From Wenzhouxiangella sp. (lineage in GTDB: Bacteria; Pseudomonadota; Gammaproteobacteria; Xanthomonadales; Wenzhouxiangellaceae), in assembly GCA_036353315.1 (NCBI GenBank), contig JAZBOC010000107.1:6236-70235 (forward strand): 64,000 nucleotides of DNA, read 5' to 3'. The translations under genes were made by a program, and so were the position numbers. This document shows positions 11,144 through 64,000 of the stretch, in pieces. How positions within the stretch are numbered: position 1 is the stretch's first letter; every line of letters begins with the position of its first letter. The notes below the pieces were generated by a model. That model saw only the letters and a list, made by a program, of their open reading frames with translations. It did not search any database and was not told the DNA's origin.

Positions 11144-11160
11144 CAATGAGGGGTTTCTTG

Positions 11161-14588: not shown

Positions 14589-14596
14589 GCTCGTCG

Positions 14597-14986
14597 TTAT
14601 CGATCGACCGCCACCGGCCGCATATCCGAATCCACGGCCACCATGACCAACATGCCTTCAATGGCGAGCTGGCGCGTGTTGGCCATGGCATCTTCAATGA
14701 GCATTTGGACCTTAACGCTGAGCGAGCTCGTCCCGATCTCCACCACATCCGCCAGCAGCTCGAGGATGGCACCCTCGGGGATCGGGACCTTGAAGTCGAC
14801 CCGATCCATGGACACCGTCACGACCTGGCGGCGGGCATAGCGGGTTGCGGCAAAAAATGCCACCTCGTCCATCCACTGCAAAGCCATGCCGCCGTAGAGC
14901 GTTCCTATCGGATTGGTGTGTTGCGGAAACACCAGACGGGTCACTCGCGTCAGGGCCTGGCGGCGTCGTTCCGGATCAAGAGTCAT
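14597..14986 (-). CDS. hotdog-fold acyl-CoA thioesterase (YciA-like)
   Basis: 129 aa. VFPQHTNPIGTLYGGMALQWMDEVAFFAATRY and VTVSMDRVDFKVPI are thioesterase hotdog signatures. Confidence 0.85.
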   Translation of the reverse strand: MTLDPERRRQALTRVTRLVFPQHTNPIGTLYGGMALQWMDEVAFFAATRYARRQVVTVSMDRVDFKVPIPEGAILELLADVVEIGTSSLSVKVQMLIEDAMANTRQLAIEGMLVMVAVDSDMRPVAVDR

Positions 14987-15179
14987 ACGAGATATCCTTC
15001 GGGTTGTCAGAGAGCAGCCCAGCCGCGCTAACGCCGCCGAAATCCTGGGGACACTGGAATGCCCGCGCTATTCTACGTCAAGCCGCGAGCCGCTCAAGCT
15101 GGCAGAAACGACCGCGCTGGGCAACAATGCAAGCCCATTCGTTGATGATGAACATGGCCGATAGCAAGGCGATCAAGAG

Positions 15180-16082: not shown

Positions 16083-16106
16083 TTCGCTCCTGACCGGCGC
16101 CTGGCC

Positions 16107-17156
16107 TCAATCCGCCGCCGTCGGCGCTGCGGTCAGCAAGTCCTCAAGACGGCGGGTCATGGTTTCAAACTTTGCAGTGCTCAGCGCAAACTGCCAAGGA
16201 GAGAGCCGCGCATCGACCGCCGCAGCATCGGCCAGCCGGCGGTCCCTTTCGTCATCGGACACTTCCTGACCGACGGGGACCGCGTCGGGCTCGGCCGAAA
16301 CCGTGAAACGGGCCCAGCCACGATCATCGTCGACGAACAGGTCGACAACGAAATTCAAGCCGTCGCGAGTCACGTAGAGCGCACGAATGGCGTCCTCCGG
16401 CACAGTTTCATGACTTCGGACATCTTCCAGGCTGATATTGGCCAGGCCGTTGGCGACGGGCCGGATTTGCCAGCGCGGCGCGGCTTCACGACCCTCGGGT
16501 ACGTCCAGCAACACCCATTGATCGCCGTCATCGTCGCCCGGGCGCAGTCGGACCCGATCACCGTCGGGGTGCACGATGGTCACTTCGGTCAGCTCGGACG
16601 CCGGAATGTCCATAACGCTGCGCTCGAGCCAGCCGATCGCCGTGGGTGGCACCTCCAGGGGCTGGTCGGTCAGCCAGGTCTGCGCCTGCCCGACCAGGCG
16701 TGCGTAGCGTCCACCAGTGGTCTCATCACGGTCACCCAGGATGATGCCAGGCAGATCTCTTTCGGGGAAAGAGACGCGCAGACCGCGTGCCTGCTCGGAC
16801 TCCACGTCGCTTAAACCCAGACGCGGATACCACTCTTCCAGCGCCGTGCGCGGCTCCGCCCGATCAGCTTCGGCCAGCTCGCGCAGCAGGTCATGCACGC
16901 GGCGGAAGTCGGCCTCGTAGCCGTCGCGGTTCTCGACCCGCCAGCGATCCCGGTCGCGCCGCAAGCGCGCCACGACCGTCTCGCCGGCTGCCTCGATATC
17001 GATCGCATCGATCTCGTTGATGACCGAGCGAAGCTCCGGCACCAGCCGCTCGGCTGGCGCAACCCCCTGGTCACGTCGCGACCCAGTAAAAATCAGGGCA
17101 GCGACCAAAGCAACCAGCGTCACGACACCCAGCATAACCACGCTGCGCGGGCTCAT
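16107..17156 (-). CDS. DUF4340-type protein, last gene of the GldG-type ABC module
   Basis: ATG at 17156 overlaps the upstream stop (ATGA) and gives MSPRSVVMLGVVTLVALVAALIF (N-terminal anchor). Call is from family recollection plus position after the GldG-like gene. Confidence 0.6.
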   Translation of the reverse strand: MSPRSVVMLGVVTLVALVAALIFTGSRRDQGVAPAERLVPELRSVINEIDAIDIEAAGETVVARLRRDRDRWRVENRDGYEADFRRVHDLLRELAEADRAEPRTALEEWYPRLGLSDVESEQARGLRVSFPERDLPGIILGDRDETTGGRYARLVGQAQTWLTDQPLEVPPTAIGWLERSVMDIPASELTEVTIVHPDGDRVRLRPGDDDGDQWVLLDVPEGREAAPRWQIRPVANGLANISLEDVRSHETVPEDAIRALYVTRDGLNFVVDLFVDDDRGWARFTVSAEPDAVPVGQEVSDDERDRRLADAAAVDARLSPWQFALSTAKFETMTRRLEDLLTAAPTAAD

Positions 17157-19030: not shown

Positions 19031-19761
19031 TCCGCTTTCTTTCGTTCCAGCACGATCCGGTTCGCGGCCAGCCAGAAGCCGATTACCAGGACGAAATAGA
19101 GCACGTCGCGCAGGTCCAGCACGCCGCGCGAGATCGAGGTGAAGTGGACGAGAAAGCTGAGATTGCCAATGCCGTCGATCATCGCCTGCGGCAGCCAGCC
19201 GCGGAACAGGTCTAGAACCATGGGCAGCCCGGAGAGCAGAAACACGAAGCAGGCCACGACCGAAAGGATGAAGGCAACAACCTGGTTGCGGGTCGCGGCG
19301 GACAGGCAGGCGCTGATCGCCAGAAATCCGCCCGCCATCAGCCAGCTACCCAGGTAGGCCGCCAGGATGACACCGTTATCCGGATTACCGAGCACATTGA
19401 CCGTGATCCAGATCGGGAACGTCAGGGCCAGCGCCAGGCCGATGAACAACCAGGCGGCAAGGAACTTGCCAAGCACCGCTTCAGTGGCGGTAATCGGCAG
19501 GGTCAAAAGCAGTTCCACGGTGCCCGACTTGCGTTCCTCGGCCCATAACCGCATGCCAATAGCCGGCACCAGGAACAGGTAAAGCCAGGGGTGGAAGCGG
19601 AAGAACGGCTCCAGGTCGGCCAGTTCTCGCTCATAGAACCCCCCCAGGTAAAACGTGAACACCGCCGACATGATCAGGTAGATGACGATGAAGACATAGG
19701 CCACCGGCGTGGCAAAGTAGCTTGCCAGCTCGCGCCGCAAAACAACAGCGAGGTTGTTCAT
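19027..19761 (-). CDS. ABC-2 type transporter permease (GldF-like)
   Basis: 244 aa, about 6 TM. LRRELASYFATPVAYVFIVIYLIMS start typical of ABC-2 permeases. ATGA overlap with the ATPase gene. Confidence 0.8.
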   Translation of the reverse strand: MNNLAVVLRRELASYFATPVAYVFIVIYLIMSAVFTFYLGGFYERELADLEPFFRFHPWLYLFLVPAIGMRLWAEERKSGTVELLLTLPITATEAVLGKFLAAWLFIGLALALTFPIWITVNVLGNPDNGVILAAYLGSWLMAGGFLAISACLSAATRNQVVAFILSVVACFVFLLSGLPMVLDLFRGWLPQAMIDGIGNLSFLVHFTSISRGVLDLRDVLYFVLVIGFWLAANRIVLERKKAE

Positions 19762-20684
19762 CGTGCAGCCTCCGTGCTCTGGGTAACGGTGCGAAAAACC
19801 TCGTCCAGCCGACCCGACTCAAGCTGGATCTGCGACACCTTCCAGCCAGCCGCTCGAACGGTGCGCGTGACCGCCTCGAACAGATCGCCCTGGCCGCTGG
19901 GAAAAACCGTCAGCCGGCCGCGCCGGATCTCAACTTCGTTTGACTCCTCAAGCGCGCCTAGGGCGGAGGCCGCGGCCTGCAGGTCTTCAAGAACCAGGGT
20001 CACGGCGTTGTGGTAACGCGAGCGGGCCAGCAAGCCGGCCGGCGTGTCGTCAGCCAGAAGCCGGCCGCGGGCGATGATCATGGCCCGGGTGCACAGGGCA
20101 TCGACTTCTTCGAGGATGTGGGTGGAGATAATCATGATTCGCTCGCTGGCCATGTCGCGGATCAGCTGGCGAACCTCGTGTTTCTGGTTCGGGTCCAGCC
20201 CGTCGGTCGGCTCATCGAGGATCAGCGCCGGTGGGTCGTGGAGAATGGCCTGGGCAATACCGACCCGGCGCTTGAAGCCCTTGGACAAGGTCTCGATACT
20301 TTGGCCCAGCACTTCACCCAGGTTCAGGCGCTCGACCGCTGAGCCCACACGCTGGATCAGCTCAGCGCGGCGAAAGCCGCGAGCTTCGCCGACAAAGCGA
20401 AGAAAACGCTCGACGCTGAGCTCACCATACAAAGGCGCTCCCTCGGGCAGATAGCCGAGCTGGCGTCGCGCGGCAAGGCCGTCGCTGCGGATGTCGTGCC
20501 CGAAGATTTCAGCCGTGCCGCCGCTGGGCTCAAGAAAACCCGTGAGCATTTTCATCGTTGTCGACTTACCGGCGCCATTCGGTCCTAGAAAGCCCAGTAT
20601 GGTGCCCGGCTCGACCTCAAATGAAAGCCTGTCGACAGCCACAAGGGGGCCGTAATGACGACTCAATGACTTGGCTTTGATCAT
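19758..20684 (-). CDS. ABC transporter ATP-binding protein (GldA-like)
   Basis: ATG at 20684 gives MIKAKSLSRHYGPLVAVDRLSFEVEPGTILGFLGPNGAGKSTT (Walker A), LSKGFKRRVGIAQA (signature), LILDEPTDGLD (Walker B). The 114 upstream codons of the longest ORF look non-coding. Confidence 0.9.
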   Translation of the reverse strand: MIKAKSLSRHYGPLVAVDRLSFEVEPGTILGFLGPNGAGKSTTMKMLTGFLEPSGGTAEIFGHDIRSDGLAARRQLGYLPEGAPLYGELSVERFLRFVGEARGFRRAELIQRVGSAVERLNLGEVLGQSIETLSKGFKRRVGIAQAILHDPPALILDEPTDGLDPNQKHEVRQLIRDMASERIMIISTHILEEVDALCTRAMIIARGRLLADDTPAGLLARSRYHNAVTLVLEDLQAAASALGALEESNEVEIRRGRLTVFPSGQGDLFEAVTRTVRAAGWKVSQIQLESGRLDEVFRTVTQSTEAAR

Positions 20685-48657: not shown

Positions 48658-50030
48658 CGGTGTTCAAACTGCCCGATCTGGGCGAAGGTCTGCCGGACGC
48701 GGAGATCGTCGAATGGCTGGTCAGCGAAGGCGATGAGGTCAAGCTCGACCAGCCGCTGGTGTCAATGGAAACGGCCAAGGCGGTGGTCGAGGTGCCTAGC
48801 CCGGTCAGCGGTCGAGTGATCCGATTCCACGGTCAGGCCGGAGACGTCATCAAGACCGGCGCACCGCTGGCCGAGTTCACCCTCGAAGGCGACAACGAAA
48901 CCGCTCCATCGAACGGTATAGATGACAAGCCGAGCGACATCGAACCGGAAGACGATCAGGAAGAAGAGCTGGACTTCGCCGAACTGGCGGCCACCCGGCG
49001 GCGCGCGCCCGAGCCAACGGCAAGCGGCTCCGCAGACGCACAGCCTGAATCATCCGAGCAGCCCACAGAGTCATCGCGAGACGACAGCGGCACCGTGGTC
49101 GGCAACGTGCCCTCCGGTAATGAAGTGCTTGAGGAGCGGACCAGCGATCTCGGCGGCGTCCGCGCCACGCCGGCGGTGCGCGCGCTGGCCAGAAAACTCA
49201 AAGTCGACATTGTCAAAGTGCCGCCGTCGGGCAGCGGCGGCGTGGTCACAGCTACCGACGTGCGCCAGGCGGCTGAGAACGGTGGAGCGGTGCTGACCGC
49301 GCCTGGATCGGGCCGTCCCGCGATGTCCACCGAACCGACACCGACTTACCGTGAACCCGTCCGCCCCCGGGCGCCGGCCAGTCCGCCACCGAGCGGCGAG
49401 TGGGAACCCTTGCGCGGGACCCGACGGACCATGGCCCGGGTGATGAGTGAATCTCACCGCAGCATCGTGCCGACCACCCTGATGGATGACGCCGACATCC
49501 ACGCCTGGCGGCCGGGGGAAGACATCACCGTCCGTCTGATCCGCGCCCTTTGGGCCGGCGCAACCGCGGAGCCAGGCCTGAATGCCTGGTACGACGGCGA
49601 GAACGGCGTGCGAATGGTGCACAAGAACATGCACGTGGGGATGGCGGTCGATACTGCCGACGGATTGTTCGTGGCCGCCCTGCGCAACGTCAACCAGCTC
49701 GATCGCCCGCAGCTTCGAGGCGAGATCAACCGACTGCGCGACAATGCCGCCAACCGATCGATTCCGCCCGAAGATCTGAAGGACTACACCCTGATCCTGT
49801 CCAACTTCGGCAAGTTCGCGGGACGCTACGCCACCCCGGTGATCACCCCGCCCTGCGTGTGCATCGTTGCGGCCGGGGCCCTGCGTCACGAGGTCGTCCC
49901 GGTGCTCGGTGGCATGGAGGTCCACCGCATGATCCCGCTCTCGCTCACGTTCGATCACCGGGCCTGCACCGGCGGCGAGGCCGCGAGGTTCCTCAAGGCC
50001 ATGCTCGACGATCTTGCCTCGGCCGAATGA
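48654..50030 (+). CDS. dihydrolipoamide acyltransferase (E2) with one lipoyl domain
   Basis: ATG at 48654 (ATGA overlap with E1beta) gives MTVFKLPDLGEGLPDAEIVEW. Lipoyl-Lys in VSMETAKAVVEV, acidic/Pro-rich linker, E3-binding region ATPAVRALARKLKVD, catalytic LSLTFDHRACTGGEAARF. Confidence 0.9.
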   Translation: MTVFKLPDLGEGLPDAEIVEWLVSEGDEVKLDQPLVSMETAKAVVEVPSPVSGRVIRFHGQAGDVIKTGAPLAEFTLEGDNETAPSNGIDDKPSDIEPEDDQEEELDFAELAATRRRAPEPTASGSADAQPESSEQPTESSRDDSGTVVGNVPSGNEVLEERTSDLGGVRATPAVRALARKLKVDIVKVPPSGSGGVVTATDVRQAAENGGAVLTAPGSGRPAMSTEPTPTYREPVRPRAPASPPPSGEWEPLRGTRRTMARVMSESHRSIVPTTLMDDADIHAWRPGEDITVRLIRALWAGATAEPGLNAWYDGENGVRMVHKNMHVGMAVDTADGLFVAALRNVNQLDRPQLRGEINRLRDNAANRSIPPEDLKDYTLILSNFGKFAGRYATPVITPPCVCIVAAGALRHEVVPVLGGMEVHRMIPLSLTFDHRACTGGEAARFLKAMLDDLASAE

Positions 50031-50061
50031 TTCCCGCCAACAAGTCGGGCCCGGCGCGGCA

Positions 50062-50523
50062 ATGATCGGACACGTTGCCCCCAGCATGATCATCGGCGCC
50101 TGCGAATGGGTGGCCCTGCCGGAACTGGGCATTGATCGACTGCGCGCCCGGGTTGACACCGGCGCCAAGTCCTGCGCCCTGCATGCCAGCGACATTCAAC
50201 CGTTCGAGCGCGATGGCGTCGACTGGGTCCGGTTCCGGGTCCATCTCGGACATCCGAGGCCGCGCGAGGACCGCGACTGCGAATGTCTGCTCAAGACCGT
50301 TCGTCGGGTGCGTTCCACGTCCGGCGAAGCCGAGCCGCGCTACACCATCCAGACCCCGATCATCATCGGCCATTCGCGCTGGATGGTGGACATCACCCTG
50401 ACCGACCGGGGCCGAATGCGCTACCGTATGTTGCTGGGCAGGAAGGCCATGGAGAATCACGCCCTGGTCTATCCGGCTCGCACTTTTCTGCAGGGCAAGC
50501 CGCGCCTGGACGCGACCCTCTGA
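50062..50523 (+). CDS. RimK-associated retropepsin-like protease (ATP-dependent zinc protease / RimB-type, DUF785)
   Basis: [44 protein letters not shown] (DTGA aspartyl-protease-like motif). Immediately upstream of rimK. Start uncertain (50014, 50062 or the ATG 8 codons later). Confidence 0.75.
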
Positions 50524-50551
50524 AGCCTGGAACACGCGGAGACCCAACACA

Positions 50552-51457
50552 ATGCGTATCGTCATTCTTTCCCGCAGCCGCAAGATTTACTCGACCCAGC
50601 GCCTGGTCGAGGCCGCCGAGGAGCGCGGGCATGAGGTGCAGGTGATTGACACGCTGGGCTGCTACATGAACATTGCCTCGCATCGACCGACCATGCACTA
50701 TCGCGGCAAGCAGCTGCAGCCGTTCGATGCCGTCATTCCCCGCATCGGCGCTTCGATCACCTTCTACGGCACGGCCGTGCTGCGCCAGTTCGAGATGATG
50801 GGGACGTTTCCGCTCAACGAATCGGTCGCCGTCACCCGCTCGCGCGATAAGCTCAGGTCCCTGCAACTACTGGCCCGGCGCGGGATCGGCCTGCCCGTCA
50901 CCGGTTTCGCTCGCCAGTCCAGCGACATCGGCGACCTGATCGAAATGGTCGGCGGAGCGCCCCTGGTGGTCAAACTGCTCGAAGGCACCCAAGGCATCGG
51001 CGTCGTCCTGTGTGAGACGCGCAAGGCGGCCGAAAGCGTACTTGAGGCCTTCATGGGCTTGAACGTGTCGATCATGGTGCAGGAATACATCAAGGAAGCC
51101 GGCGGTGCCGACATCCGCTGCTTCGTGGTCGGCGACAAGGTCGTGGCCGCGATCAAGCGCCAGGCCAAGCCGGGCGAGTTCCGCTCCAACCTGCATCGCG
51201 GCGGCACCGCCTCGCTGGTCAAGATCACGCCGCAGGAGCGCTCTGTGGCCGTCCGGGCAGCCAAGATCATGGGCCTGAACGTGGCCGGGGTCGATATCCT
51301 GCGGGCCAATCATGGACCAGTCATTATGGAGGTCAACTCCTCGCCCGGTCTGGAAGGCATCGAGACCTCCACCGGCAAGGACGTGGCCGGGATGATCATC
51401 GGTTTCCTCGAAAAGAACGCCCGCAAGGACAAGACCCGGACCCGCGGAACCGGCTGA
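50552..51457 (+). CDS. rimK: ribosomal protein S6 / poly-alpha-L-glutamate ligase RimK (ATP-grasp)
   Basis: 301 aa. [75 protein letters not shown] are all RimK hallmarks. Confidence 0.95.
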
Positions 51458-53388: not shown

Positions 53389-54399
53389 TCAGCCCAGTTT
53401 GCGAATGCCGACGGCCGAGCGCAGCTGCTCCATCAGCGGCCGGCTGATCGCGCGCGCCTTGTCTGCGCCGCGCTGCAGTTCATCCTCGACCCGGGCCGGA
53501 TCGGCCATCAGGGCCTCATAGCGCTCGCGCGGAGCCTGAAGTTGGGCATTGACCAGCTCGAACAACTGCTGCTTGACCTCGCCCCAGGCAATCCCTTCGC
53601 TGAAGGCTGCGCGCATCGCCTGGCGCTGAGCCGGAGTGGCGAAGGCGGCATAGACCGCGTAGACCGGGGCGCTGTCCGGATCCTTCGGTTCGCCCGGCTC
53701 GAGCGAGTTGGTCTTGATCTTCATGATCGCCTTGCGCAGCTTCTTCTCGGGGAGCCACAGTGGAATGGTGTTGTCGTAGCTTTTCGACATCTTGCGGCCG
53801 TCGGTGCCCGGCAAGGTAGCCACATGCTCGTCGATGACCGCTTCAGGCAAGGTGAAATGCTCGCCATAGCGATGGTTGAAGCGGGCGGCGATATCGCGCG
53901 CCATCTCCAGGTGCTGGACCTGGTCCTTGCCGACCGGAACGCGGTGGGCATTGAACATGAGGATATCAGCGGCCATCAGAACCGGGTAGCAGAACAGGCC
54001 CATGGTGATGCCCTGGTCAGGATCCTCGCCCGCCTCTCGGTTGGCATCGATCCCCGCCTTGTAAGCGTGGGCGCGGTTCATCAGCCCCTTGGCCGTCACG
54101 CAGGTCAGTAGCCAGGTCAGTTCTGGGATCTCCGGCACGTCTGACTGGCGATAGAACACCGCCCGCTCGGTGTCCAGACCCAGCGCCAGCCAGGTCGCGG
54201 CAATTTCCAGGGTTGAACGCTGTACCCGCTCCGGATCCTCGCACTTGACCAGGGCGTGGTAGTCGGCCAGAAAATAGAAGGACTCGGTCGCCTGATCGCG
54301 GCTGGCAGCGATCGCCGGCTCGATCGCACCGACGTAGTTGCCGAGATGGGGTGTGCCGGTGGTCGTGATCCCGGTGAGCACGCGCTGATTGATGGTCAT
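53389..54399 (-). CDS. trpS: tryptophan--tRNA ligase
   Basis: ATG at 54399 gives [26 protein letters not shown] (HIGH-type TPHLGN) and KMSKS (GRKMSKSY). Confidence 0.95.
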
Positions 54400-54479
54400 G
54401 GCCGGTTCGGGGCTGTCATCGGATGGCGGTAAAACGCTATTGTAGTGCCTCATGTCCCACGGGAGACCACAGCTTGGAG

Positions 54480-55580
54480 ATGATCAGGGCCGTTTACCAG
54501 GCCACCGCCGCGGACCGGGATCCGGAAGTCCTGGCTGAGAACATTGCCCGCGAACAAAGCCTGGAGCTGACCCGGGCACTCATCCCCGAGGCCATTGCCG
54601 AACGCCTGCTCGGCCGGGTTCTCGACGTGGCACCTCTGGCCGACGATTGCTGGCGGCTGGAGATCGGCTACCCGGCTGAACTGGCCAGCGGCCAGGCCGG
54701 TCAGTTGCTGCACCTGATCTACGGCAACATCTCGTTCTATCCGCGCATTCGCCTGGTAGGGCTGGACCTTCCGGACGGTCTGCTCGCCCGCCTGCCCGGT
54801 CCAATCGGCGGTCTGCCCGCCATCCGCGCCTGGACCGGCGTTGCTGAGCGCGCCCTGCTGATGACGGTGCTCAAGCCGCGCGGCAGCGACCCCTCGGTGC
54901 TGGCCGATCTGGCCCTGGCCTTCGCCCGCGGCGGCGGCGATCTGATCAAGGATGACCAGAATCTGGTCGAAGACGATATTGCCGCCTTCGGCCGGCGGGT
55001 TGGCGCCTGCGCTGCCGCCGTCGACCGAGCTGCTCACGAAACCGGCCGGCGCTGCCTGTATCTGCCGCACGTGGCCGGCAGCGGTGACCACCTCCGACGC
55101 CAGCTTGACATCGTCCGCGAGCTGAAGCTCGGCGGGGTGGTTCTATGCACCTGGGTCATGGGGCTGGAGACGGCTGCAACGGCGGCCAGAGAGCGTGACC
55201 TGATGTGGCTGTCCCATCCAGCCATGGCCGGCGCCTTCACCGAACCGCCCGCCACCGGCATCGCAAGCGCGGTGCTGCTCGGAACGATGGTGCGGGTGGC
55301 CGGCGCCGACGTCAGCATTTTTCCCGGTCGAGGCGGCCGGATTCATTCCGGACGCAGCGACGACGAAAGCGCCACCTGCCGAGCGTTGACCGCGCCGCTG
55401 GGCCCGATCAAGGCCACCCTGCCCTGCACCGGCGGCGGCAAGACTCTGGAGCAGGCAGCGCTCACCGCGCGGGACCAGGGACCAGACTGCGCGATCCTGG
55501 TCGGCGGCGACCTGATCGCGCGCGGCGATCGCATCACGGCCGATACCGCAGCCGCCGTGGCGGCCCTGACCGCTGTCTGA
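54480..55580 (+). CDS. RuBisCO-like protein (form IV large-subunit homologue)
   Basis: ATG at 54480 (GGAGA upstream), 366 aa. [11 protein letters not shown] (Lys175 equivalent), [12 protein letters not shown] (KDDE to KDDQ; Gln codon 54957..54959), LPCTGGG and ILVGGDL C-terminal P-site glycine motifs. Confidence 0.85.
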
Positions 55581-56135: not shown

Positions 56136-56163
56136 ACCGGACCTCGCCCGTGCGCGGTCCGGT
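56136..56163 (+). terminator. weak hairpin after the PPIase gene
   Basis: ACCGGACC (56136..56143) pairs with GGTCCGGT (56156..56163), 12-nt loop. Poor U-tract. Confidence 0.3.
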
Positions 56164-56209
56164 CTGCTATGCTTTGCGCCCCTGCGACCTTGAGGATGCC
56201 TGCCCGTCA

Positions 56210-56956
56210 ATGACCTACTGTCTGGGCCTGCGGCTGACCACCGGCCTGGTTCTGGCCTCGGATTCCCGGACCAGCGCCAGCGTCGACGATATCAGCGTCT
56301 ACTCCAAGATGCACACTTTCGATACCCGGCCGGACCGGGTTGTGGTGCTGCTGTCAGCCGGCAACCTGGCGACCTCGCAAGCCGTGCGCAGCCAGATCAA
56401 CCGGGACCTGCAAAACCCGACGGCCGAGCGCAACCTGAATAGCCTTCAGCATCTCGACGAAATCGCCGGCTACGTCGGCGAGATCAATCGCCAGGTCCAA
56501 CACAACATCGCGCCCGAGCCGGACCAGGCCAGCGGCTTCAACCCGGAGGCCAGCTTCCTGCTCGGCGGTCAGGTCGGCGACGGCGCCCATGACATCTTCC
56601 TGATCTATCCGCAGGGCAATCACATCGTGGCCTCTCGCCAGAAGCCCTTTCTGCAGATCGGAGAAACCAAGTACGGCAAGCCAATCCTCTCTCGCCTGGC
56701 CGACGGAGAACTCTCGCTGGACCTGGGTGCGCGGTTGGCGCTGGTATCGATGGATGCGGCCATGCGCTCCAATCTCTCGGTCGGTCCGCCGATCGAGGTC
56801 GCGGTCTGCCCTGCCGGCGCCCATCGCGTAGCCCGCAGGCTCAAGCTGACCGAGCAGGATGCCTACCTGAAGACTCTGGCCGAGCAGTGGAACCACCAGT
56901 TGCGCGAGGCCTTCCTGGGGCTGCCCGATCCGGAGGGCTGGGAAAGCGCAAGCTGA
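56210..56956 (+). CDS. Anbu-type proteasome homologue (Ntn-hydrolase, peptidase T1 family)
   Basis: ATG at 56210 gives MTYCLGLRLTTGLVLASDSRTS, with Thr directly after Met (56213..56215). 248 aa, the size and pattern of proteasome-type protease. Adjacent to ATP-grasp/alpha-E genes. Confidence 0.8.
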   Translation: MTYCLGLRLTTGLVLASDSRTSASVDDISVYSKMHTFDTRPDRVVVLLSAGNLATSQAVRSQINRDLQNPTAERNLNSLQHLDEIAGYVGEINRQVQHNIAPEPDQASGFNPEASFLLGGQVGDGAHDIFLIYPQGNHIVASRQKPFLQIGETKYGKPILSRLADGELSLDLGARLALVSMDAAMRSNLSVGPPIEVAVCPAGAHRVARRLKLTEQDAYLKTLAEQWNHQLREAFLGLPDPEGWESAS

Positions 56957-56986
56957 GCGCTGGCCAGGCCAGCCCGGCGATGGTTC

Positions 56987-58048
56987 TCAAGCCCCTGCGG
57001 CAACCCGCTGGCAGGCCGTCTCGATCACCTGCTCGATCAATCTCAGTTTATCGACCACCGGCGTGACCAGGATGAATGGATAGGGATCGGGCTGATCCAG
57101 GCTGCGGTTGAGCAGGTTGATTCGCCGCGCCAAATCAATCCAGCACTCCATGCGCCGGTCAAACGGCAGGTCCAGCACATCGGCGCGCACCATATCGTTG
57201 ACCGCAGCCGTTTCCAGCGTATCGGAGATCTGCAGGTAATGCGCCCAGCACTCGGCCCAGTCTTCCCACGGATGGGCGCTGGCGTAAGCGCTGATGTACG
57301 CCTGCGGCCAGGCCCAGTGCGGGCCATCCCGATAATAGGCTTCAAGGGCCTCATCATAGGTCTGACGCTCGTCGCCGAAGCGTTCGCGCACGACGTCAAG
57401 CAACGGCGACCCGGACACCAGCCGATCCCAGTAGTAGTGGCCGATCTCGTGACGAAAATGGCCGAGCAGTGTCCGCTGGGCCTCATTCATCTGCACCCGC
57501 ATCCGCTCGCGCTCGACGTCGTCGGCCTCGCGGATATTGATCGTGATCAGCCCGTTGGCATGGCCGGTCATGACCGGCTGGTCCTCCGTCGAATCCAGGA
57601 ATTCCAGCGGATCGGGATTGTTTTCAAGAAAGGCGAACCCCAACCCGTGCTGCGAAGATTCGCGACGGCTTTCGATCGGCAAATCATGGCGCATGAGATC
57701 GAACAACAGTCGCCGCTTGCGCCGCTCCACCGCCAGCCAAAGTGCCCGGTTACCCGGCTTGTCCAGATTGGGAATGACTTCATTGAGCCGGCAGGCACGA
57801 CAATAGCCTTCCGGATCTTCAGCCGGCACCATCCAGTTGCAGACTTGCTCGCGGCTGTAGTTCAGGCACTGGCGATAGCTGCGACCCGCGGCACGCGGGT
57901 GGCGGGCCTTCCACAACCCGTCGCCCTGATCGGCCAGGGCGGACATCACCCCAAGATCCGGCAGGAAGCCGAGAACGGACTGGCAGGCCACGCACAAGGT
58001 GTTTTCGAAGTAGACCGTGTTGCCGCAGCTGCAGGAAAAGTTCTTCAT
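56987..58048 (-). CDS. zinc-ribbon-containing HExxH metallopeptidase-family protein
   Basis: 353 aa. N-terminal CSCGNTVYFENTLCVAC ribbon and second CxxC (GYCRACRL). HEIGH at 57437..57451 (LGHFRHEIGHYYWDRL). ATGA overlap with the alpha-E gene. Confidence 0.7.
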   Translation of the reverse strand: MKNFSCSCGNTVYFENTLCVACQSVLGFLPDLGVMSALADQGDGLWKARHPRAAGRSYRQCLNYSREQVCNWMVPAEDPEGYCRACRLNEVIPNLDKPGNRALWLAVERRKRRLLFDLMRHDLPIESRRESSQHGLGFAFLENNPDPLEFLDSTEDQPVMTGHANGLITINIREADDVERERMRVQMNEAQRTLLGHFRHEIGHYYWDRLVSGSPLLDVVRERFGDERQTYDEALEAYYRDGPHWAWPQAYISAYASAHPWEDWAECWAHYLQISDTLETAAVNDMVRADVLDLPFDRRMECWIDLARRINLLNRSLDQPDPYPFILVTPVVDKLRLIEQVIETACQRVAAGA

Positions 58049-58980
58049 TCGCTGGCCTCGGTCAGAAACCAGGTCTGCGAAATTCGGTCGCCAATGGCGA
58101 TCAGCTCAACCTGGAGGCGGTCGACGAAAGCACTCAAGCCGCCATCGACCAGTTCGTGCACGTCGGCCTGATCGATCATGCGCTGTGCGCGCCCCACCGC
58201 CACCAGCGTTGCTTCATGTCCGGGCAGCGCGTGAAGGCGCTCAGCGACCGCTTCCAGACAAAACGAGACCGAGCGCGGAAACAGCGGATTGCCGAGCAGA
58301 AAGCGCAGTACGTCCGTCCCGCTGACGCGCAGCCGCACGTGGCGACGATACATCTGGTAAGCGGTCAGTGACTTCAGCACGCTCATCCACTGAAGTTGAT
58401 CGAAGGGCTGAGTATTGTCCACGCCCCGCAGCAGGTGGGCCGAACGCACGTCCAGAATACGCGTGGTCATGTCGGCCCGCTCATGGTAGCGGCCCAGCAG
58501 AATGAAATCCCAAGCGTGATCATGACTCATGGTATCAGCCAGCATCCCGATCAGCTGCTGGCAGCGGCAAATCACCGAAACGATGAATTCATGGCGAGCG
58601 CGCTTGGCGAGCTGGCCAGCCAAGCGCTCGCGCGCCATCAGATAGAGATCGTTGGTCTGCTCCCAGACCTCGCGCGGCACGAGGTCACGGGCCGCACGCA
58701 GGTTCTCGCGCGCCTGCGCGAGGCACGAAAGCACCGAACCGCCGTGACGGGGCTCTGCCAACAGGAATCGCACCACCTGGCGTTCGTCAGCCGAATCGTG
58801 CAGCTCGTCGAACAGCGCCTGGCTGCCGGTGATCCGCACCAATGGGCCCCAGCCTGGCGCAAGACGCCGGGGCAGGTCGAGCATCAGGTGGGCGTTGACG
58901 TTGATCATCCGGCCCAGGTCCTCGGCCCGCTCGAGGTAACGGCCGTACCAGTAAAGATTCTCGGCGACGCGCGACAGCAT
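58045..58980 (-). CDS. alpha-E domain protein
   Basis: 311 aa. MLSRVAENLYWYGRYLERAEDLGRMINVN is the canonical alpha-E start. TGATG junction with the ATP-grasp gene. Confidence 0.85.
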   Translation of the reverse strand: MLSRVAENLYWYGRYLERAEDLGRMINVNAHLMLDLPRRLAPGWGPLVRITGSQALFDELHDSADERQVVRFLLAEPRHGGSVLSCLAQARENLRAARDLVPREVWEQTNDLYLMARERLAGQLAKRARHEFIVSVICRCQQLIGMLADTMSHDHAWDFILLGRYHERADMTTRILDVRSAHLLRGVDNTQPFDQLQWMSVLKSLTAYQMYRRHVRLRVSGTDVLRFLLGNPLFPRSVSFCLEAVAERLHALPGHEATLVAVGRAQRMIDQADVHELVDGGLSAFVDRLQVELIAIGDRISQTWFLTEASE

Positions 58981-60503
58981 CAGTCGTCACCGCCGTCGGT
59001 GTCGACGATCCAGGTGTCCTTGCTGCCGCCGCCCTGCGAGGAGTTGACCACCAGCGACCCGGCGCGCATCGCCACTCGGGTCAGCCCGCCGGTGGTGACG
59101 TACTGCTGGTCGCCGGACAAGATGAAAGGTCGCAAATCGACGTGGCGCGGTGAGACCTGCGAACCGACCAGCGTCGGACAGGTGGAGATGGCCAATGTCG
59201 GCTGGGCGATGTAGTTGCGCGGATCGGCCTTGATCAGCCGCTTGAACTGATCCCGCTCCTTGCGCGTGGCGTGCGGACCGATCAGCATGCCGTAGCCGCC
59301 GGACTCGTTGGCCGGCTTGACCACCAGCTGATCGATATTGGCCAGCACGTGATCAAGCTCTGAACGGATGCTGCACCGCCAGGTCGGTACGTTGGGCACC
59401 AGCGGGTCCTGATCCAGGTAATAACGAATAATGTCGGGGACGTAAGAGTAGACGACCTTGTCGTCGGCCACCCCGGCTCCCGGCGCGTTGGCCAGGCCGA
59501 CCTTTCCGGCCCGCCAGGATCGCATCAGGCCCGGCACGCCGAGCAGCGAATCTTGGCGAAAGACTTCCGGGTCGAGAAACGCGTCGTCGATGCGACGGTA
59601 GATCACGTCCACCTGTTCCAGTCCGTGAATGGTGCGCATGAACACGCAGTTGTCGTCATCGACGACCAGATCGCGCCCCTCGACCAGCTCCACGCCCATT
59701 TGCTGGGCCAGCCAGGCGTGTTCGAAATAGGCCGAATTGAACATTCCCGGGGTGAGCACGACGACAACCGGGTAGTCGGCCGGACGCGGCGACAGGCTGG
59801 CCAGGGTGTCGAACAGACGGGCCGGGTAGTCGTCGACCGGCTGGATATCGATGTTCTCGAACAGCTCGGGAAACACCTTTTTCATGACCTGGCGATTCTC
59901 GAGCATGTAGGACACCCCGGACGGCACCCGCAGGTTGTCCTCAAGCACGTAAAGCGTGCCGTCGGCATCGCGCACCAGATCGCTGCCACAGATATGCGCC
60001 CAGACGCCGTAGCGCGGCTGAACGCCGCGGCACGGCTCTCGAAACCCCACCGAACCGGCCAGGATTTCAGCCGGGAAGACCCCGTCGGCGACGATCTTCT
60101 GGTCGCCGTAGAGATCATCAATGAACAAATTCAGCGCGGTGACCCGTTGCTCGAGTCCCAGGCGGGTTTTCTCCCACTCACGCAAGGAGATGACCCGGGG
60201 GATCAGATCAAAGGGCATCGCCCGATCGGCGCTGCCTTCATCGTGGTAGACGCGGAAACTGATGCCGGCGACCAGCGCAGCGATCTCGCAGGCATCCCGG
60301 CGCTCGACCAGCTCGCCGCGATCCAGCCTCCGCAAATACTTCCACAGTCGCCGGGCCGCGGCCCTTGGACCGCCGCGCGGTCCGATCAGCTCATCGTAAA
60401 AATCGCTGTGGTAGCGCCAGTCCTGCGCATCGCTGGAGAGATTGTTCAAACCGCCTCGCAGCCCGAACCCGGGTTCATGGATACCACCAAGAGCATACCG
60501 CAT
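58980..60503 (-). CDS. circularly permuted type-2 ATP-grasp protein (putative amidoligase)
   Basis: 507 aa. YVLEDNLRVPSGVSYMLENR, VVVLTPGMFNSAYFEHAWLAQQMGVELVEGRDL and VVKPANESGGYGMLIGP match the CP ATP-grasp family. Confidence 0.9.
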   Translation of the reverse strand: MRYALGGIHEPGFGLRGGLNNLSSDAQDWRYHSDFYDELIGPRGGPRAAARRLWKYLRRLDRGELVERRDACEIAALVAGISFRVYHDEGSADRAMPFDLIPRVISLREWEKTRLGLEQRVTALNLFIDDLYGDQKIVADGVFPAEILAGSVGFREPCRGVQPRYGVWAHICGSDLVRDADGTLYVLEDNLRVPSGVSYMLENRQVMKKVFPELFENIDIQPVDDYPARLFDTLASLSPRPADYPVVVVLTPGMFNSAYFEHAWLAQQMGVELVEGRDLVVDDDNCVFMRTIHGLEQVDVIYRRIDDAFLDPEVFRQDSLLGVPGLMRSWRAGKVGLANAPGAGVADDKVVYSYVPDIIRYYLDQDPLVPNVPTWRCSIRSELDHVLANIDQLVVKPANESGGYGMLIGPHATRKERDQFKRLIKADPRNYIAQPTLAISTCPTLVGSQVSPRHVDLRPFILSGDQQYVTTGGLTRVAMRAGSLVVNSSQGGGSKDTWIVDTDGGDD

Positions 60504-60589
60504 CGCCAGCCAGGTTCATCCACAGGCAACGCAGTTGCCGCAGTTTCCGCTACCATCCAGCCTTCGCCACACCGAAAGTCCCTCCTGGC

Positions 60590-62479
60590 ATGTCGCTGAT
60601 TTCCCTCAAAGGCATCGAGTTCAACATCGGCGGCCCGCTGCTGCTCGACGGGGTCGATCTGGAGATCGAACCGGGAGAGCGCATTGCCCTGGTCGGGCGC
60701 AACGGCGCCGGCAAATCCACCCTGCTGCGTCTGATCGCCGGTGATCTGCAACCCGATGGTGGGCGCATCGAGCAGCCTGCCGGTCTGCGCGTTGCCCGCC
60801 TTCAGCAGGAGGTGCCCTCCGGGGCCGGCGGGTCGGTCTTCGACCAGGTCGCTGCCGGGCTGGGCGAGCTGGGCCAGATCCTGGTCGACTACCACCACGC
60901 CAGCCAGTCCGAGTACGATGCCGAACGTTTGGCCGACCTGCAGTCAAAGATCGAGGCCGCCGGCGGCTGGGACCTGGATAGCCGGGTCGAGAGGGTGCTG
61001 GGCCAGCTGGGCCTGAACGGCGATCAGCCCTTCGATCAGCTGTCCGGAGGGATGAAGCGCCGAGTGCTGCTTGGTCAGGCCCTGGTTGTCGAGCCCGACC
61101 TGTTGCTGCTCGACGAACCCACCAACCATCTCGACATCGAGGCCATCGAATGGCTGGAGAACCTGCTCCTGCAGCTCGACGCGGCGCTGGTGTTCGTGAC
61201 TCACGACCGGCGCTTCCTCAAGAACCTCGCCACCCGCATCATCGAAATCGATCGCGGCCAGCTCACCTCCTGGCCCGGCGACTGGGACAACTACCTGCGC
61301 CGCTCGGCCGAACGCGCCCACGCCGAGGAGCTGGAGCATCAGCAGTTTGATCGACGCCTGTCGGAAGAAGAAACCTGGATCCGTCAAGGCATCAAGGCCC
61401 GCCGCACCCGCAATGAGGGTCGGGTGCGGGCTCTGGAGCAAATGCGTCGTGAGCGCGCGGCTCGGCGTGAACGAACCGGAACCGTCAACCTGGAGACCGG
61501 GATCGCCGCACCGTCGGGCAAGAAGGTGATCCGGGTCGAAGATCTGCACTTTGCCTGGGGCAAGCAGATCATTGCCCATGACTTCTCCACCACCATCCTG
61601 CGCGGCGATCGGGTCGGCCTGATCGGCCCCAACGGCAGCGGCAAGTCCACGCTGATCGGGCTGCTGCTGGGTAAGATCTCGCCGGACCGCGGCACCGTCA
61701 CCCTGGGCACCGCACTGGAGATCGCCTATTTCGATCAGCAACGAGCGGTTCTGCGCGATGATTGGAGCGCGGCCGACAACGTCGCTGAAGGGCGTGATTT
61801 CGTCGAGATCAACGGCAAGGCCCGCCACATCATCGGCTACCTGCAGGACTTTCTGTTTACCCCGGAGCGCGCGCGTGCGCCGATTTCGCGCCTGTCAGGC
61901 GGCGAGCGTAACCGCCTGCTGCTGGCCCGGCTGTTCGCACGTCCGTCCAACCTGCTGGTCATGGACGAACCGACCAATGACCTCGATACCGAAACGCTGG
62001 AGCTCCTGGAGGAGCGCCTGGCCGCCTATCCCGGCACGCTGTTGTTGGTCAGCCATGATCGCGATTTTCTCGATCGGGTGATCACCAGCACCCTCGCGCT
62101 GGAAGGCGAGGGTCGCATCTCAGAGTATGTCGGCGGCTACAGTGACTGGCTGCGCCAGCGCACGGGGTCACGCACACCTTCTCCGGCAACGTCCCGAACA
62201 ACCCCCTCATCCGGTGCGACGGGCAAAGCGCGACCTGCAGCGGCCAAGCTGAGCTACAAACTGGCTCGCGAACTGGCTGAGCTACCCGAAAAGGTCGAGC
62301 GGCTGGAAGCAGACATGAGTCGACTTGCCGAGCAGATGAACGATCCTTTGCTGCACGCTGACGATCCGGCAAAGGCCAGCCAGGCCGCCCGACAGGTCAA
62401 GCAGCTTCAGGATCAGCTCGACGCCGCCTTCGCTCGCTGGGAGGAATTGGAAAAACTCCGTGAGCAGGCGCCCTCCTGA
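60590..62479 (+). CDS. uup: ABC-F family ATPase Uup (two ABC domains plus C-terminal coiled coil)
   Basis: ATG at 60590 gives MSLISLKGIEFNIGGPLLLDG, as E. coli Uup begins MSLISM. Walker A GRNGAGKST and GPNGSGKST, signatures LSGGMKRR and LSGGERNR. The longest ORF adds 75 non-homologous residues. Confidence 0.9.
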   Translation: MSLISLKGIEFNIGGPLLLDGVDLEIEPGERIALVGRNGAGKSTLLRLIAGDLQPDGGRIEQPAGLRVARLQQEVPSGAGGSVFDQVAAGLGELGQILVDYHHASQSEYDAERLADLQSKIEAAGGWDLDSRVERVLGQLGLNGDQPFDQLSGGMKRRVLLGQALVVEPDLLLLDEPTNHLDIEAIEWLENLLLQLDAALVFVTHDRRFLKNLATRIIEIDRGQLTSWPGDWDNYLRRSAERAHAEELEHQQFDRRLSEEETWIRQGIKARRTRNEGRVRALEQMRRERAARRERTGTVNLETGIAAPSGKKVIRVEDLHFAWGKQIIAHDFSTTILRGDRVGLIGPNGSGKSTLIGLLLGKISPDRGTVTLGTALEIAYFDQQRAVLRDDWSAADNVAEGRDFVEINGKARHIIGYLQDFLFTPERARAPISRLSGGERNRLLLARLFARPSNLLVMDEPTNDLDTETLELLEERLAAYPGTLLLVSHDRDFLDRVITSTLALEGEGRISEYVGGYSDWLRQRTGSRTPSPATSRTTPSSGATGKARPAAAKLSYKLARELAELPEKVERLEADMSRLAEQMNDPLLHADDPAKASQAARQVKQLQDQLDAAFARWEELEKLREQAPS

Positions 62480-62492
62480 GCAGCACCGGCCG

Positions 62493-62720
62493 CACTCGCT
62501 TGAGGCGTTGTGCCCAGCGCATTGCCGCCCGTTGCTCTGCCGGCGTACGGTCCCCTTCTCGCGCCGGCCGGACCGGCCTGGCTCCTCGGATCCGCCGGGC
62601 CGGCGTGATCCAGGCTCGCCACGGGCTGTTGGGTGCGAACACCCCGTGGAAGCGGGTCAGATTCAGGCGCGACGGCGGGATGAGTGCCGCCAGCCGGGCA
62701 ATGAAATCCAGTGGGTTTTT
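62493..62720 (-). pseudogene. IS91-family (HUH/Y2 rolling-circle) transposase C-terminal fragment
   Basis: Minus-strand frame reads KNPLDFIARLAALIPPSRLNLTRFHGVFAPNSPWRAWITPA...RAAMRWAQRLKRV, the conserved C-terminal region of IS91 transposases. No N-terminal or catalytic part; homology ends 14 nt from the uup stop. Confidence 0.7.
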
Positions 62721-62724
62721 CCGA

Positions 62725-63642
62725 TTAGGGGATTTCTGTACAGGTCACCGAGCAACCATTTTGATCGCATTCTCCTCGGCACCGAAGTCCACCGCCACCC
62801 GCTCCCGTCACCGGAATCCCCCACCACATAGCCAATTCTCTCAATTGGTTGACAACATCGGCTGAACCGCCAAAGTACTCGAAATTGCCGAGCGAACCTG
62901 ATGGAATGACAGTTCCGTCATGAAGATGACCAGTATCATCGTGAAACTCAAAACTGACGGAGATTGTCATCGGCCCCGTGAAGTGAACGGATTCGATAGA
63001 TATCTCAACTGTCGACCCGTCTGGGAAGACTATGACCATGCGGGTGTTGAGTTGATGACCAAACATGTGGTTCACGAGATTGGTGAAGGCAGTAAGACCA
63101 ACTAGCCCACTTTGGCTGAGAAGCCCAGTAGTCAAGAAGTCTTCCAGATCGGACAACAACTGTTGTCTGGTCTGATGGCTTGGGGAGTCAGGCGGGCCGA
63201 ATAGCGATATCGCTGATCCTATATCGGTAAAATCTTCAGCAGAGATTTCGCCTGTTATTAAATTAAGTCTATAGGTCGCCAGTCCTTCAATCGTTGTTTT
63301 TGTGGCAACCTCACCTGGTCCTGCGACCGCAGCCATAACGGTTGAGTGCCAATCTCGACTCGCATGAACAACAAAAAATCTTGTCTCTGTCGAGTCAGGG
63401 TTCACAACATAGACTGGATATTCCAAATAACTGACCAGCTCCGAACCAGGCTCTGCTGGAATCGGTGTTGCAGCAAGCGCTGCACTTTCAAACTGGGCAT
63501 AATTGTAACAAGCACCACAAAAACTAACGTTTGATGCTGACACCGCGCTAACCGCGAACAATATACAGGCTGTAAACAGTAATTTACCCGGAAACAACCA
63601 TTTTTTTGAGGTAAATGTAATCAGATTTTGGTTAAACGCCAT
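62725..63642 (-). CDS. secreted hypothetical protein with Cys-rich C-terminus (low-GC islet cargo)
   Basis: 305 aa. Signal-like KKWLFPGKLLFTACILFAVSAVSAS, C-terminal LRCRGECDQNGCSVTCTEIP. GGGGGA 8 nt before the ATG. Visibly lower GC than neighbours. No family recognised. Confidence 0.6.
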   Translation of the reverse strand: MAFNQNLITFTSKKWLFPGKLLFTACILFAVSAVSASNVSFCGACYNYAQFESAALAATPIPAEPGSELVSYLEYPVYVVNPDSTETRFFVVHASRDWHSTVMAAVAGPGEVATKTTIEGLATYRLNLITGEISAEDFTDIGSAISLFGPPDSPSHQTRQQLLSDLEDFLTTGLLSQSGLVGLTAFTNLVNHMFGHQLNTRMVIVFPDGSTVEISIESVHFTGPMTISVSFEFHDDTGHLHDGTVIPSGSLGNFEYFGGSADVVNQLRELAMWWGIPVTGAGGGGLRCRGECDQNGCSVTCTEIP

Positions 63643-63670
63643 GCCACCGATCCCCCGTTTATTGCCCTAA

Positions 63671-63698
63671 AGCATAAAAAAAAAAGAGCTACTGTCAA
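63671..63698 (-). promoter_or_regulatory. candidate sigma70 promoter for the islet gene
   Basis: Minus strand reads TTGACA (63698..63693), 16-nt spacer containing a T-run, then TATGCT (63676..63671). About 30 nt upstream of ATG 63642. Confidence 0.45.
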
Positions 63699-63722
63699 GT
63701 CTGGTGTGTGGCGATGGACTGA

Positions 63723-64000
63723 TCAAGCCGCAGCTTGCCTGCTGATCTGCCGTTCATCGATACCGTCGATGAACTTCACGCCAGCAATGACGTCGGCCAG
63801 TTGCTTGAAGCCTCGCAGTTTGCGCCATCGTTTCTGGGCGCTCATTGCACGTGTCAATCGACACCTAGTTTTACGCATTAAGACGACACCTACTTTTAAG
63901 CACTCCCAGGGCGGGTGCTGGCCGTTGGCCTGCTCGCCTACCAGAGCCTGGAGCGCGTCCTGAAAGTTGCCGGTGGACACGCCCCGCAGGTACAGCCAGG
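63723..64000 (-). pseudogene. IS256-family transposase remnant with the DDE core deleted; continues past the window end
   Basis: One frame reads LYLRGVSTGNFQDALQALVGEQANG (IS256 N-terminal region), then about 20 unrelated codons, then AQKRWRKLRGFKQLADVIAGVKFIDGIDERQ...AAA* (IS256 C-terminus). About 300 codons of catalytic core are missing. Confidence 0.65.
63859..63898. repeat. 15-nt direct repeat pair at the deletion junction of the IS256 remnant
   Basis: CGACACCTAGTTTTA (63859..63873) and CGACACCTACTTTTA (63884..63898), 14/15 identical, AT-rich. The adjacent small dyad is GTGTC-AATC-GACAC (63851..63864). Confidence 0.5.

Follow-up and report, generated by a model that had tools for sequence, protein, structure and literature searches.

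Anbu, the ancestral beta-subunit, is a proteasome-like N-terminal nucleophile (Ntn) hydrolase that was named in 2008. Its protein family, those of its companions and the canonical operon in which they lie are already known, the operon having reportedly been described by Valas and Bourne in 2008 and by Iyer et al. in 2009. Here we describe an Anbu locus in a stretch of 64,000 nucleotides from Wenzhouxiangella sp. (contig JAZBOC010000107.1); this whole stretch is referred to as the window, and positions are those of the window unless another locus is named. Anbu is encoded on the plus strand and converges on three minus-strand genes, which encode a circularly permuted type-2 ATP-grasp amidoligase (CP-ATP-grasp), an alpha-E domain protein and a Zn-metallopeptidase-like protein of the Peptidase_Mx family (Mx). 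NCBI names all four proteins. No publication was found on this Mx-containing convergent architecture, or tying DUF2248, Peptidase_Mx or COG4307 to Anbu or CP-ATP-grasp, although Iyer et al. 2009 lay outside the search and may mention this neighbour.

The locus and its four proteins

The features of the locus are as follows.

56210..56956 (+): Anbu, 248 aa from the ATG at 56210 (open reading frame (ORF) list and PDB matches)
56957..56986 (no strand): 30-nt spacer between the convergent Anbu and Mx stop codons
56987..58048 (-): Zn-metallopeptidase-like protein Mx, 353 aa (Pfam)
about 57029-57748: Peptidase_Mx domain (PF15887) of Mx, residues 101-340 (Pfam)
57437-57451: HEIGH (HExxH) of Mx, residues 200-204 (sequence motif)
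about 57761-58039: N-terminal double Cys4 zinc ribbon (PF10005) of Mx, residues 4-96 (Pfam)
58045..58980 (-): alpha-E domain protein, 311 aa (Pfam, full-length model match)
58980..60503 (-): CP-ATP-grasp, 507 aa as called (Pfam)
60504..60589 (no strand): 86 nt separating the ATP-grasp gene from a divergent ABC-F ATPase gene, presumed to hold the promoter of the three-gene operon

The ATP-grasp, alpha-E and Mx genes are translationally coupled. In the sequence TGATG the ATP-grasp stop codon and the alpha-E start codon share one nucleotide, and in the sequence ATGA the alpha-E stop and the Mx start overlap by four. The Anbu stop codon TGA (56954-56956) and the Mx stop codon (56987-56989) face each other across the 30-nt gap. 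The ATG at 56210 (+) opens MTYCLGLRLTTGLVLASDSRTS; the ORF list begins the Anbu ORF at an upstream GTG (56150..56956, +). An earlier note on this DNA had proposed these four genes, their identities and coordinates, the opposite strand of Anbu, both overlaps and the gap. All of this is borne out by the ORF list, by direct reading of the junctions, and by the Pfam and PDB matches, which also rule out chance ORFs.

The 248-aa protein is unambiguously Anbu. Its Pfam match is marginal (Proteasome, 4.9e-05), and it is a phmmer search of all PDB sequences that places it, with 5LOY (8.6e-66), 5NYW (1.4e-50) and 5NYJ, 5LOX and 5NYF (about 1e-47, the weakest 2.3e-47) as the matches. All five are Anbu, beyond them nothing falls below E 0.69, and only Anbu chains pass E<=1. 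An AlphaFold 2 (AF2) model (predicted local distance difference test (pLDDT) 82.9) has helices at 218-236 and 241-247. In a Foldseek search with this model ranks 1-31 are all Anbu chains, with template-modelling (TM) scores of 0.71-0.90 (0.8-0.9 for full-length chains). Subunits of the 20S proteasome follow at E~1e-9 and TM of about 0.55-0.6, and no HslV or BPH chain is found in the top 50. The protein thus has the alpha-beta-beta-alpha fold of Ntn hydrolases and, at its C-terminus, the Anbu-specific helix H5. HslV and BPH are, like Anbu, single-gene bacterial proteasome beta-like Ntn hydrolases, but they lack the C-terminal helical extension, and no HslU is encoded near the locus. A misassigned HslV, BPH or 20S subunit is therefore rejected by both the sequence search and the predicted fold. 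Grouping with HslV, or loss of the catalytic triad, were the outcomes on which the earlier note had staked the Anbu identity beforehand, and neither was found.

The protein begins MTYC...SDSRT...YSKMH and has no propeptide, with Met directly before Thr1, as the earlier note had observed. Among 28 aligned Anbu homologues the start codon (ATG, GTG or TTG) abuts Thr in 27, and the 28th is 5'-truncated. The catalytic Thr1, Asp17 and Lys32 are present; counting Met1, the residues M1, T2, D18 and K33 are invariant in an alignment of 12 homologues, in agreement with the triad expected earlier. When compared with a published residue list (PMC5666114), the S1 pocket of the window Anbu (T20, Y30, S48, L52, S55) is Anbu-1-like. 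P. aeruginosa Anbu (Pa-Anbu) has the Anbu-1 pocket T20, F30, T48, L52 and S55, and the Anbu-2 pocket is basic (PMC5666114); the differences from Pa-Anbu are conservative and introduce no Arg. Pa-Anbu has been shown to bind proteasome inhibitors through Thr1 (PMC5666114).

The ATP-grasp and alpha-E proteins form a CP_ATPgrasp_2/Alpha-E pair, with full-length profile matches (2.2e-163 and 4.4e-89, respectively) in adjacent coupled genes. The ATP-grasp protein matches PDB 3N6X, a structural-genomics entry, at E 9.7e-157, and the PDB search gave no solved homologue of alpha-E. In the Y. bercovieri operon the ATP-grasp enzyme liberates phosphate from ATP (PMC6376114). As called, the N-terminus of the window protein (window 60400-60503) is 13-27 aa longer than those of its orthologues (480-494 aa). 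By tblastn, however, W. limi DNA matches it at 90.6% amino-acid identity from residue 4, upstream of the start called in W. limi, and the start codon is therefore uncertain.

Mx matches Peptidase_Mx (PF15887) at 2.4e-91 (305.8 bits against a curated cut-off of 27) and Zn_ribbon_DZR_6 (PF10005) at 1.2e-29 (103.3 bits against 23.4). The earlier note had described it as a Cys4 ribbon plus HEIGH protein. The HEIGH motif lies where it was placed, at 57437-57451, but the N-terminus carries two Cys4 clusters (C6/C8/C19/C22 and C61/C70/C83/C86) rather than one. H200, E201, H204 and the eight Cys are invariant in 15 Mx sequences that are 51-71% identical to the window protein. The block H259/E262/D263/E266 (HPWEDWAE) is also invariant in the homologues, and likely provides the third metal ligand.

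Foldseek with an AF2 model of Mx (pLDDT 86) found no close solved structure; the best matches (E~0.07) were anthrax lethal factor and a Bacteroides putative Zn peptidase. A profile search of PDB gave a best E of 0.048 over 40 residues. A close structural relative is rejected, both values being non-significant, and because no significant structural neighbour was found the label 'peptidase' follows from the motif and the Pfam naming. The weak structural and profile matches are suggestive of a zincin fold, and agree with an earlier profile-based assignment of DUF2248 nearest to anthrax lethal factor and MtfA-like zincins (PMC3650047). The family comprises at least 8000 clusters at 90% identity, and no experimental study of any Peptidase_Mx member was found in the literature.

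MtfA-like zincins bind regulators, and Mx could in the same way be a regulator or adaptor, a zincin-fold zinc-ribbon protein gating the ligase or Anbu; it could even be the activator that Anbu has lacked in vitro. The profile assignment (PMC3650047), the weak Foldseek matches, the double zinc ribbon, which is a typical interaction module, and the inactivity of Anbu alone in vitro (PMC6376114) would all fit. Set against these, the HExxH motif and the downstream acidic block are invariant across the 15 diverse homologues, as catalysis predicts, and Mx lies beside ATP-grasp and alpha-E in many loci that have no Anbu. We regard a purely regulatory Mx as improbable.

Recurrence of the module and the convergent Anbu/Mx pair

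Recurrence was examined from the Mx side by scanning one genome per GTDB species, which gave at least 599 Mx loci; the best 80 were kept and their neighbours mapped locally by tblastn and phmmer. CP-ATP-grasp lies within 4 kb of Mx in 37 of these 80 species-level loci. A genome has one to three CP-ATP-grasp genes, from which we would expect any given gene to lie within 4 kb of one by chance in well under 1% of cases. The enrichment of this Zn-peptidase family near CP-ATP-grasp, alpha-E and Anbu genes, on which the earlier note's proposal depended, is thus evident. The linkage spans Gammaproteobacteria, Betaproteobacteria, a Nitrospirota metagenome-assembled genome (MAG) and others, in several gene orders. 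When all ORFs that flank the orphan Mx genes were clustered, no recurrent partner emerged beyond the ATP-grasp, alpha-E, transglutaminase and Anbu families; the remaining clusters were antisense shadow ORFs of high-GC DNA, and another conserved partner is rejected.

All four genes are present, and transglutaminase is absent within +-10 kb, at 11 loci; three others have Mx with ATP-grasp and alpha-E only. Two gene orders occur among the 11, either ATP-grasp, alpha-E and Mx converging on Anbu, as in the window, or a convergent Mx/Anbu pair followed by ATP-grasp and alpha-E. Pfam-labelled contexts show the window-type four-gene set between unrelated flanks in W. marina, 'Halomonas denitrificans', a JGI metagenome genome and a Wenzhouxiangellaceae MAG. 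The linkage of Anbu to CP-ATP-grasp and alpha-E is itself seen in the window, in W. marina, at loci L001, L094 and L096, and at no fewer than 40 metagenomic loci (at least).

Other Mx loci lack Anbu. In Marinobacter (L043, L045, L048 and L052, about 10000-20400) and at L051 and L047 two tandem CP-ATP-grasp systems lie behind one Mx gene, in the order Mx, window-type ATP-grasp, alpha-E, a transglutaminase-family protein of ~1100 aa, a second, divergent ATP-grasp (35-37% identity) and a small transglutaminase. At 15 Burkholderiaceae-type loci (Paraburkholderia/Caballeronia) Mx is divergent from an operon of a large transglutaminase, a divergent ATP-grasp and a small transglutaminase. These Anbu-less double systems carry the same Mx family as the window (44-50% identity), likewise linked to CP-ATP-grasp. 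They differ from the window in that transglutaminases sit alongside Mx, and the Burkholderiaceae ATP-grasp belongs to another subfamily (30-34% identity).

From the Anbu side, the 80 metagenomic loci nearest to the window Anbu (43-83% identity) were sampled. Mx is the neighbour in 26, and a transglutaminase, mostly the ~1100-aa form, in 27. Both occur together at a single locus, that is at one of the 54 having either. A further 14 have ATP-grasp/alpha-E only, and 13, mostly short contigs, have none of these neighbours. Mx and transglutaminase are therefore almost mutually exclusive around the same Anbu clade, and the alternative partner in the window Anbu lineage is usually the large ~1100-aa transglutaminase-family protein, not the small canonical one.

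Of 41 loci with both genes (L104, L141, L150 and L173, for example), 40 have Anbu and Mx convergent, as in the window at 56954-56989. From stop to stop the median distance is 0 nt, and 19 of the 41 have 3' ends that overlap, by 4-110 nt. The opposite-strand, convergent Anbu is a conserved hallmark of the Mx-containing variant. The sole exception is Natronospira proteinivora (L095 3119-8941), with Anbu on the same strand as Mx. There the co-directional order is CP-ATP-grasp, alpha-E, Mx, a PmbA/TldD-family peptidase, Anbu and an unannotated 71-aa ORF, so that yet another peptide hydrolase joins the set.

A parallel lineage and a relative without Mx

The canonical operon was examined at eight loci from plasmid and chromid records (Ralstonia, Aeromonas, Acinetobacter, Klebsiella, Paracoccus, Limimaricola, Burkholderia and Methylobacterium). 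In all eight the order is ATP-grasp, alpha-E, small transglutaminase, Anbu, all co-directional, which matches the literature. Like the window it begins with ATP-grasp and alpha-E, places a hydrolase-type gene third and lacks an AAA+ partner, and its Anbu shares with that of the window Thr1/Asp17/Lys32, the missing propeptide and the C-terminal helix. However, the third gene of the canonical operon encodes a Cys transglutaminase fold and that of the window a Zn HExxH peptidase with a double zinc ribbon, and the Anbu gene is co-directional in the one and convergent on the opposite strand in the other. The window therefore does not hold the canonical arrangement of four co-directional genes. No transglutaminase ORF was found in the whole 64-kb window, either by phmmer with two seeds from annotated operons or with a 30-sequence profile at E<=10, and a hidden transglutaminase is thereby rejected. 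The earlier suggestion that a Zn peptidase has taken the cysteine-protease slot is upheld by this absence together with the near exclusivity seen in the Anbu clade.

The window proteins are consistently closer to those of Mx-linked loci than to those of the canonical operon of Ralstonia, as follows (amino-acid identity to the window protein).

ATP-grasp: Ralstonia canonical operon 52%; Mx-linked loci 62-74%
Alpha-E: Ralstonia canonical operon 30%; Mx-linked loci 42-60%
Anbu: Ralstonia canonical operon 41%; Mx-linked loci 46-58%

A neighbour-joining tree of 28 Anbu sequences, drawn without bootstrap, splits cleanly into small-transglutaminase-linked Anbu on one side and Mx-linked Anbu, with the large-transglutaminase-linked Anbu of A. 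caldus, on the other. The latter clade has its own Anbu signature, comprising Y-S-K-M-H, SVGPP and a C-terminal W-E, the last reading PRFDWE in most other members of the clade and DPEGWE in the window. Canonical Anbu instead has F-R-K and SVGLP where the window Anbu has Y-S-K and SVGPP. Solved Anbu structures come from P. aeruginosa PA1733, Y. bercovieri and Hyphomicrobium, and in the PDB alignments no crystallised Anbu carries the signatures of the Mx-linked clade. By the identity gap, the tree split and these signatures, the Mx-linked Anbu, ATP-grasp and alpha-E form an old, parallel and co-diverging lineage, not a recent or one-off gene swap. The earlier note had called the locus a variant architecture of an uncharacterised system; the variant recurs and forms a lineage of its own.

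The large-transglutaminase versions (the A. caldus megaplasmid, L083, and metagenomic loci L105, L108 and L116) combine Anbu and a ~1100-aa transglutaminase-family protein with window-type ATP-grasp/alpha-E. They share the Anbu clade and the ATP-grasp/alpha-E subfamily of the window (62% and 43% identity in A. caldus), and Anbu is usually its own transcription unit, as in the window; the accessory protein differs from Mx. The A. caldus locus (L083 645-14708) holds two Anbu paralogues by ntrC/glnL, insertion sequence (IS) elements, a large transglutaminase-family gene and window-type ATP-grasp/alpha-E. One of the paralogues (3368-4132) is annotated merely as hypothetical, and an unannotated gap at 7771-10067 has a weak transglutaminase-like match.

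The closest relative found is W. limi (L093, JAAGSC010000031.1), the Anbu of which is 88% identical to that of the window. On both sides of Mx the two loci are collinear, with DNA that is 82-83% identical, but in W. limi 78 nt (8733-8810) stand in place of window 56942-58058, a segment made up almost entirely of the Mx gene. The other three genes, Anbu, alpha-E and ATP-grasp, retain their synteny in W. limi, where Anbu converges directly on alpha-E. Since Mx occupies the same position in more distant relatives, its loss in W. limi is the parsimonious reading.

It could be argued from W. limi that Mx is an independent neighbour, a housekeeping or stress peptidase that is hitch-hiking, and that the true system is ATP-grasp/alpha-E with Anbu. 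In keeping with this, 43 of the 80 Mx loci lack an ATP-grasp within 4 kb, with no other partner recurring among them, and a Ralstonia megaplasmid has both a canonical operon and Mx genes, with no Mx within 7 kb of the operon at the one locus inspected. Against it stand the ATGA overlap of the Mx start with the alpha-E stop, the recurrence of the linkage across Gammaproteobacteria, Betaproteobacteria, the Nitrospirota MAG and others in several gene orders, and the convergent pairing with Anbu in 40 of 41 loci. The near exclusivity of Mx and transglutaminase around one Anbu clade would also be hard to obtain without a shared function. In view of this recurrence there seems only a slim chance that Mx is a bystander.

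The genes upstream of Anbu encode an FKBP/SlyD-type isomerase, a RuBisCO-like protein, a class-I tRNA-synthetase paralogue and an FAA-hydrolase, and the ABC-F ATPase gene (60590-62479, +) lies divergently beyond ATP-grasp. The flanking genes have no evident connection to the four-gene module. PADLOC gave no match for any of the four proteins, so that an anti-phage defence system is rejected.

A few other features of the window were noted. A second, unrelated pair of ATP-grasp ligase and protease is encoded 5 kb upstream, at 50014-51457 (+), and consists of RimK (3e-69), preceded by a RimB-like 'putative ATP-dependent zinc protease' (PF05618, 5e-34). The RuBisCO-large-chain-like protein (54423-55580, +) has a partial catalytic-domain match only (4.7e-15) and is probably a form IV RuBisCO-like protein. 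The 5' end of its gene overlaps the divergent start of the class-I Trp/Tyr-tRNA-synthetase-family gene (53389-54453, -), and W. limi also keeps this pair. Window 62001-64000, where G+C falls to 0.557 from ~0.63, contains a 305-aa ORF without a Pfam match (62725-63642, -) and may, given these two features, have been horizontally acquired.

Possible function of the system

ATP-grasp enzymes make amide bonds via acyl-phosphates, and HExxH zincins hydrolyse peptide bonds. From what these two families and Anbu are known to do, the locus is probably a complete member of a distinct, conserved lineage of Anbu-associated peptide/amide ligation-hydrolysis systems, in which a ligase and two hydrolases act on a peptide or protein substrate. 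This reading is favoured by the way the four genes are kept together in different genomic settings and have diverged jointly from their canonical counterparts, and the additional PmbA/TldD peptidase of Natronospira is counted in its favour. In such a system ATP-grasp, with alpha-E as its obligate partner, would use ATP to activate a carboxylate as an acyl-phosphate, and would then make an amide or isopeptide bond on the substrate. Mx would hydrolyse or trim the product of the ligase, a job done in the sister versions by transglutaminase-fold thiol peptidases or amidases. Anbu, with Thr1 exposed once Met has been removed, would break down the peptide, or the protein that bears the mark. In the window the cysteine-hydrolase fold has given way to a non-homologous zinc hydrolase, which is unable to form a thioester for transamidation; this suggests that the shared function of the third gene is hydrolysis (editing or removal) and not cross-linking or transamidation.

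Several observations weigh against this ligation-hydrolysis reading. The peptidase activity of Mx is a putative one, known from its motif and the Pfam naming. Activity of Anbu on peptide substrates has never been shown, and no complex was detected among the canonical operon proteins (PMC6376114). Mx is dispensable, being exactly what is missing in W. limi, and 14 of the 80 Anbu loci have ATP-grasp/alpha-E but neither Mx nor a transglutaminase. The 43 Mx loci without a nearby ATP-grasp count on the same side, as do Marinobacter and Paraburkholderia, where Mx co-occurs with transglutaminases rather than replacing them. No tag or precursor-peptide gene was seen in the locus, and the promoter, terminator and sigma-54 scans of the locus were all negative.

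In these scans neither the sigma-54 consensus GG-N10-GC nor a sigma-70 site was found upstream of ATP-grasp or of Anbu, and a nitrogen-regulated (sigma-54) promoter is accordingly rejected. Two terminator-like matches fall inside genes, fewer than in shuffled sequence. Within the 30-nt convergent gap lies a GC-rich palindrome, GCTGGC-CAG-GCCAGC (56959-56973). A role as bidirectional terminator is rejected, since the hairpin folds but with a stability not above that of shuffled sequence (z = 0.5). It was also not among the calls of the terminator scan.

The regulatory signals bear on another explanation, in which ATP-grasp/alpha-E builds a small amide or oligopeptide, such as a nitrogen-storage peptide or a conjugate of the gamma-glutamyl or polyamine type, and Mx and Anbu recycle it, e.g. 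under nitrogen limitation. The sole solved ATP-grasp homologue, 3N6X, was deposited as a 'putative glutathionylspermidine synthase', the canonical operon of P. putida is strongly induced by nitrogen limitation (PMC3235984, note added in proof; PMC5666114), the A. caldus Anbu and large-transglutaminase/ATP-grasp genes adjoin ntrC/glnL, and the locus is without a tag gene. However, Anbu is multi-subunit and proteasome-like with an S1 pocket that fits peptide chains (PMC5666114), the sigma-54 scan found nothing ahead of either transcription unit of the locus, and the conserved core includes no genes for transport or small-molecule biosynthesis. A small-molecule pathway is therefore considered unlikely, if less so than a regulatory or unconnected Mx.

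The closest functional analogy to the ligation-hydrolysis system is the Pup-proteasome of Actinobacteria (PafA, Dop, Mpa, 20S), and it is an analogy only. Both encode together an ATP-dependent carboxylate-amine ligase, an amidase or isopeptidase and a proteasome-family Thr protease. The Pup ligase has a glutamine-synthetase-like fold, whereas that of the window is an unrelated ATP-grasp, and Anbu forms an open ring according to the literature, in contrast to the closed barrel of the Pup-system proteasome. Unlike the Pup system, the window locus encodes neither a Pup-like tag nor an AAA+ unfoldase, and any tagging here is hypothetical. A bolder version, which we put forward as quite doubtful speculation, would have ATP-grasp/alpha-E mark proteins covalently, Mx (in sister loci the large transglutaminase-fold protein) act as an isopeptidase and Anbu degrade what is marked, as an AAA-independent counterpart of pupylation or ubiquitylation. 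The convergent Mx/Anbu pair would then be an antisense, excludon-like switch that makes 'erase' and 'degrade' exclusive.

The variant is useful rather than startling. The role of Anbu is an 18-year-old question, and its companions, the ATP-grasp, alpha-E and transglutaminase, are equally unexplained; the alternation of a Zn hydrolase and a transglutaminase fold by one Anbu clade is a clue that favours hydrolysis over cross-linking. The Mx-linked locus also points to a second Anbu lineage, with signatures of its own, that is not represented among the solved structures. The convergent or overlapping arrangement of Mx and Anbu is strictly conserved, which hints at regulation. The window organism, with Mx, and W. 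limi, which lacks only Mx, are a natural knockout pair that suits comparative proteomics. For the large Peptidase_Mx/DUF2248 family, with its 8000 or more (at least) sequence clusters, the locus offers a first functional context.

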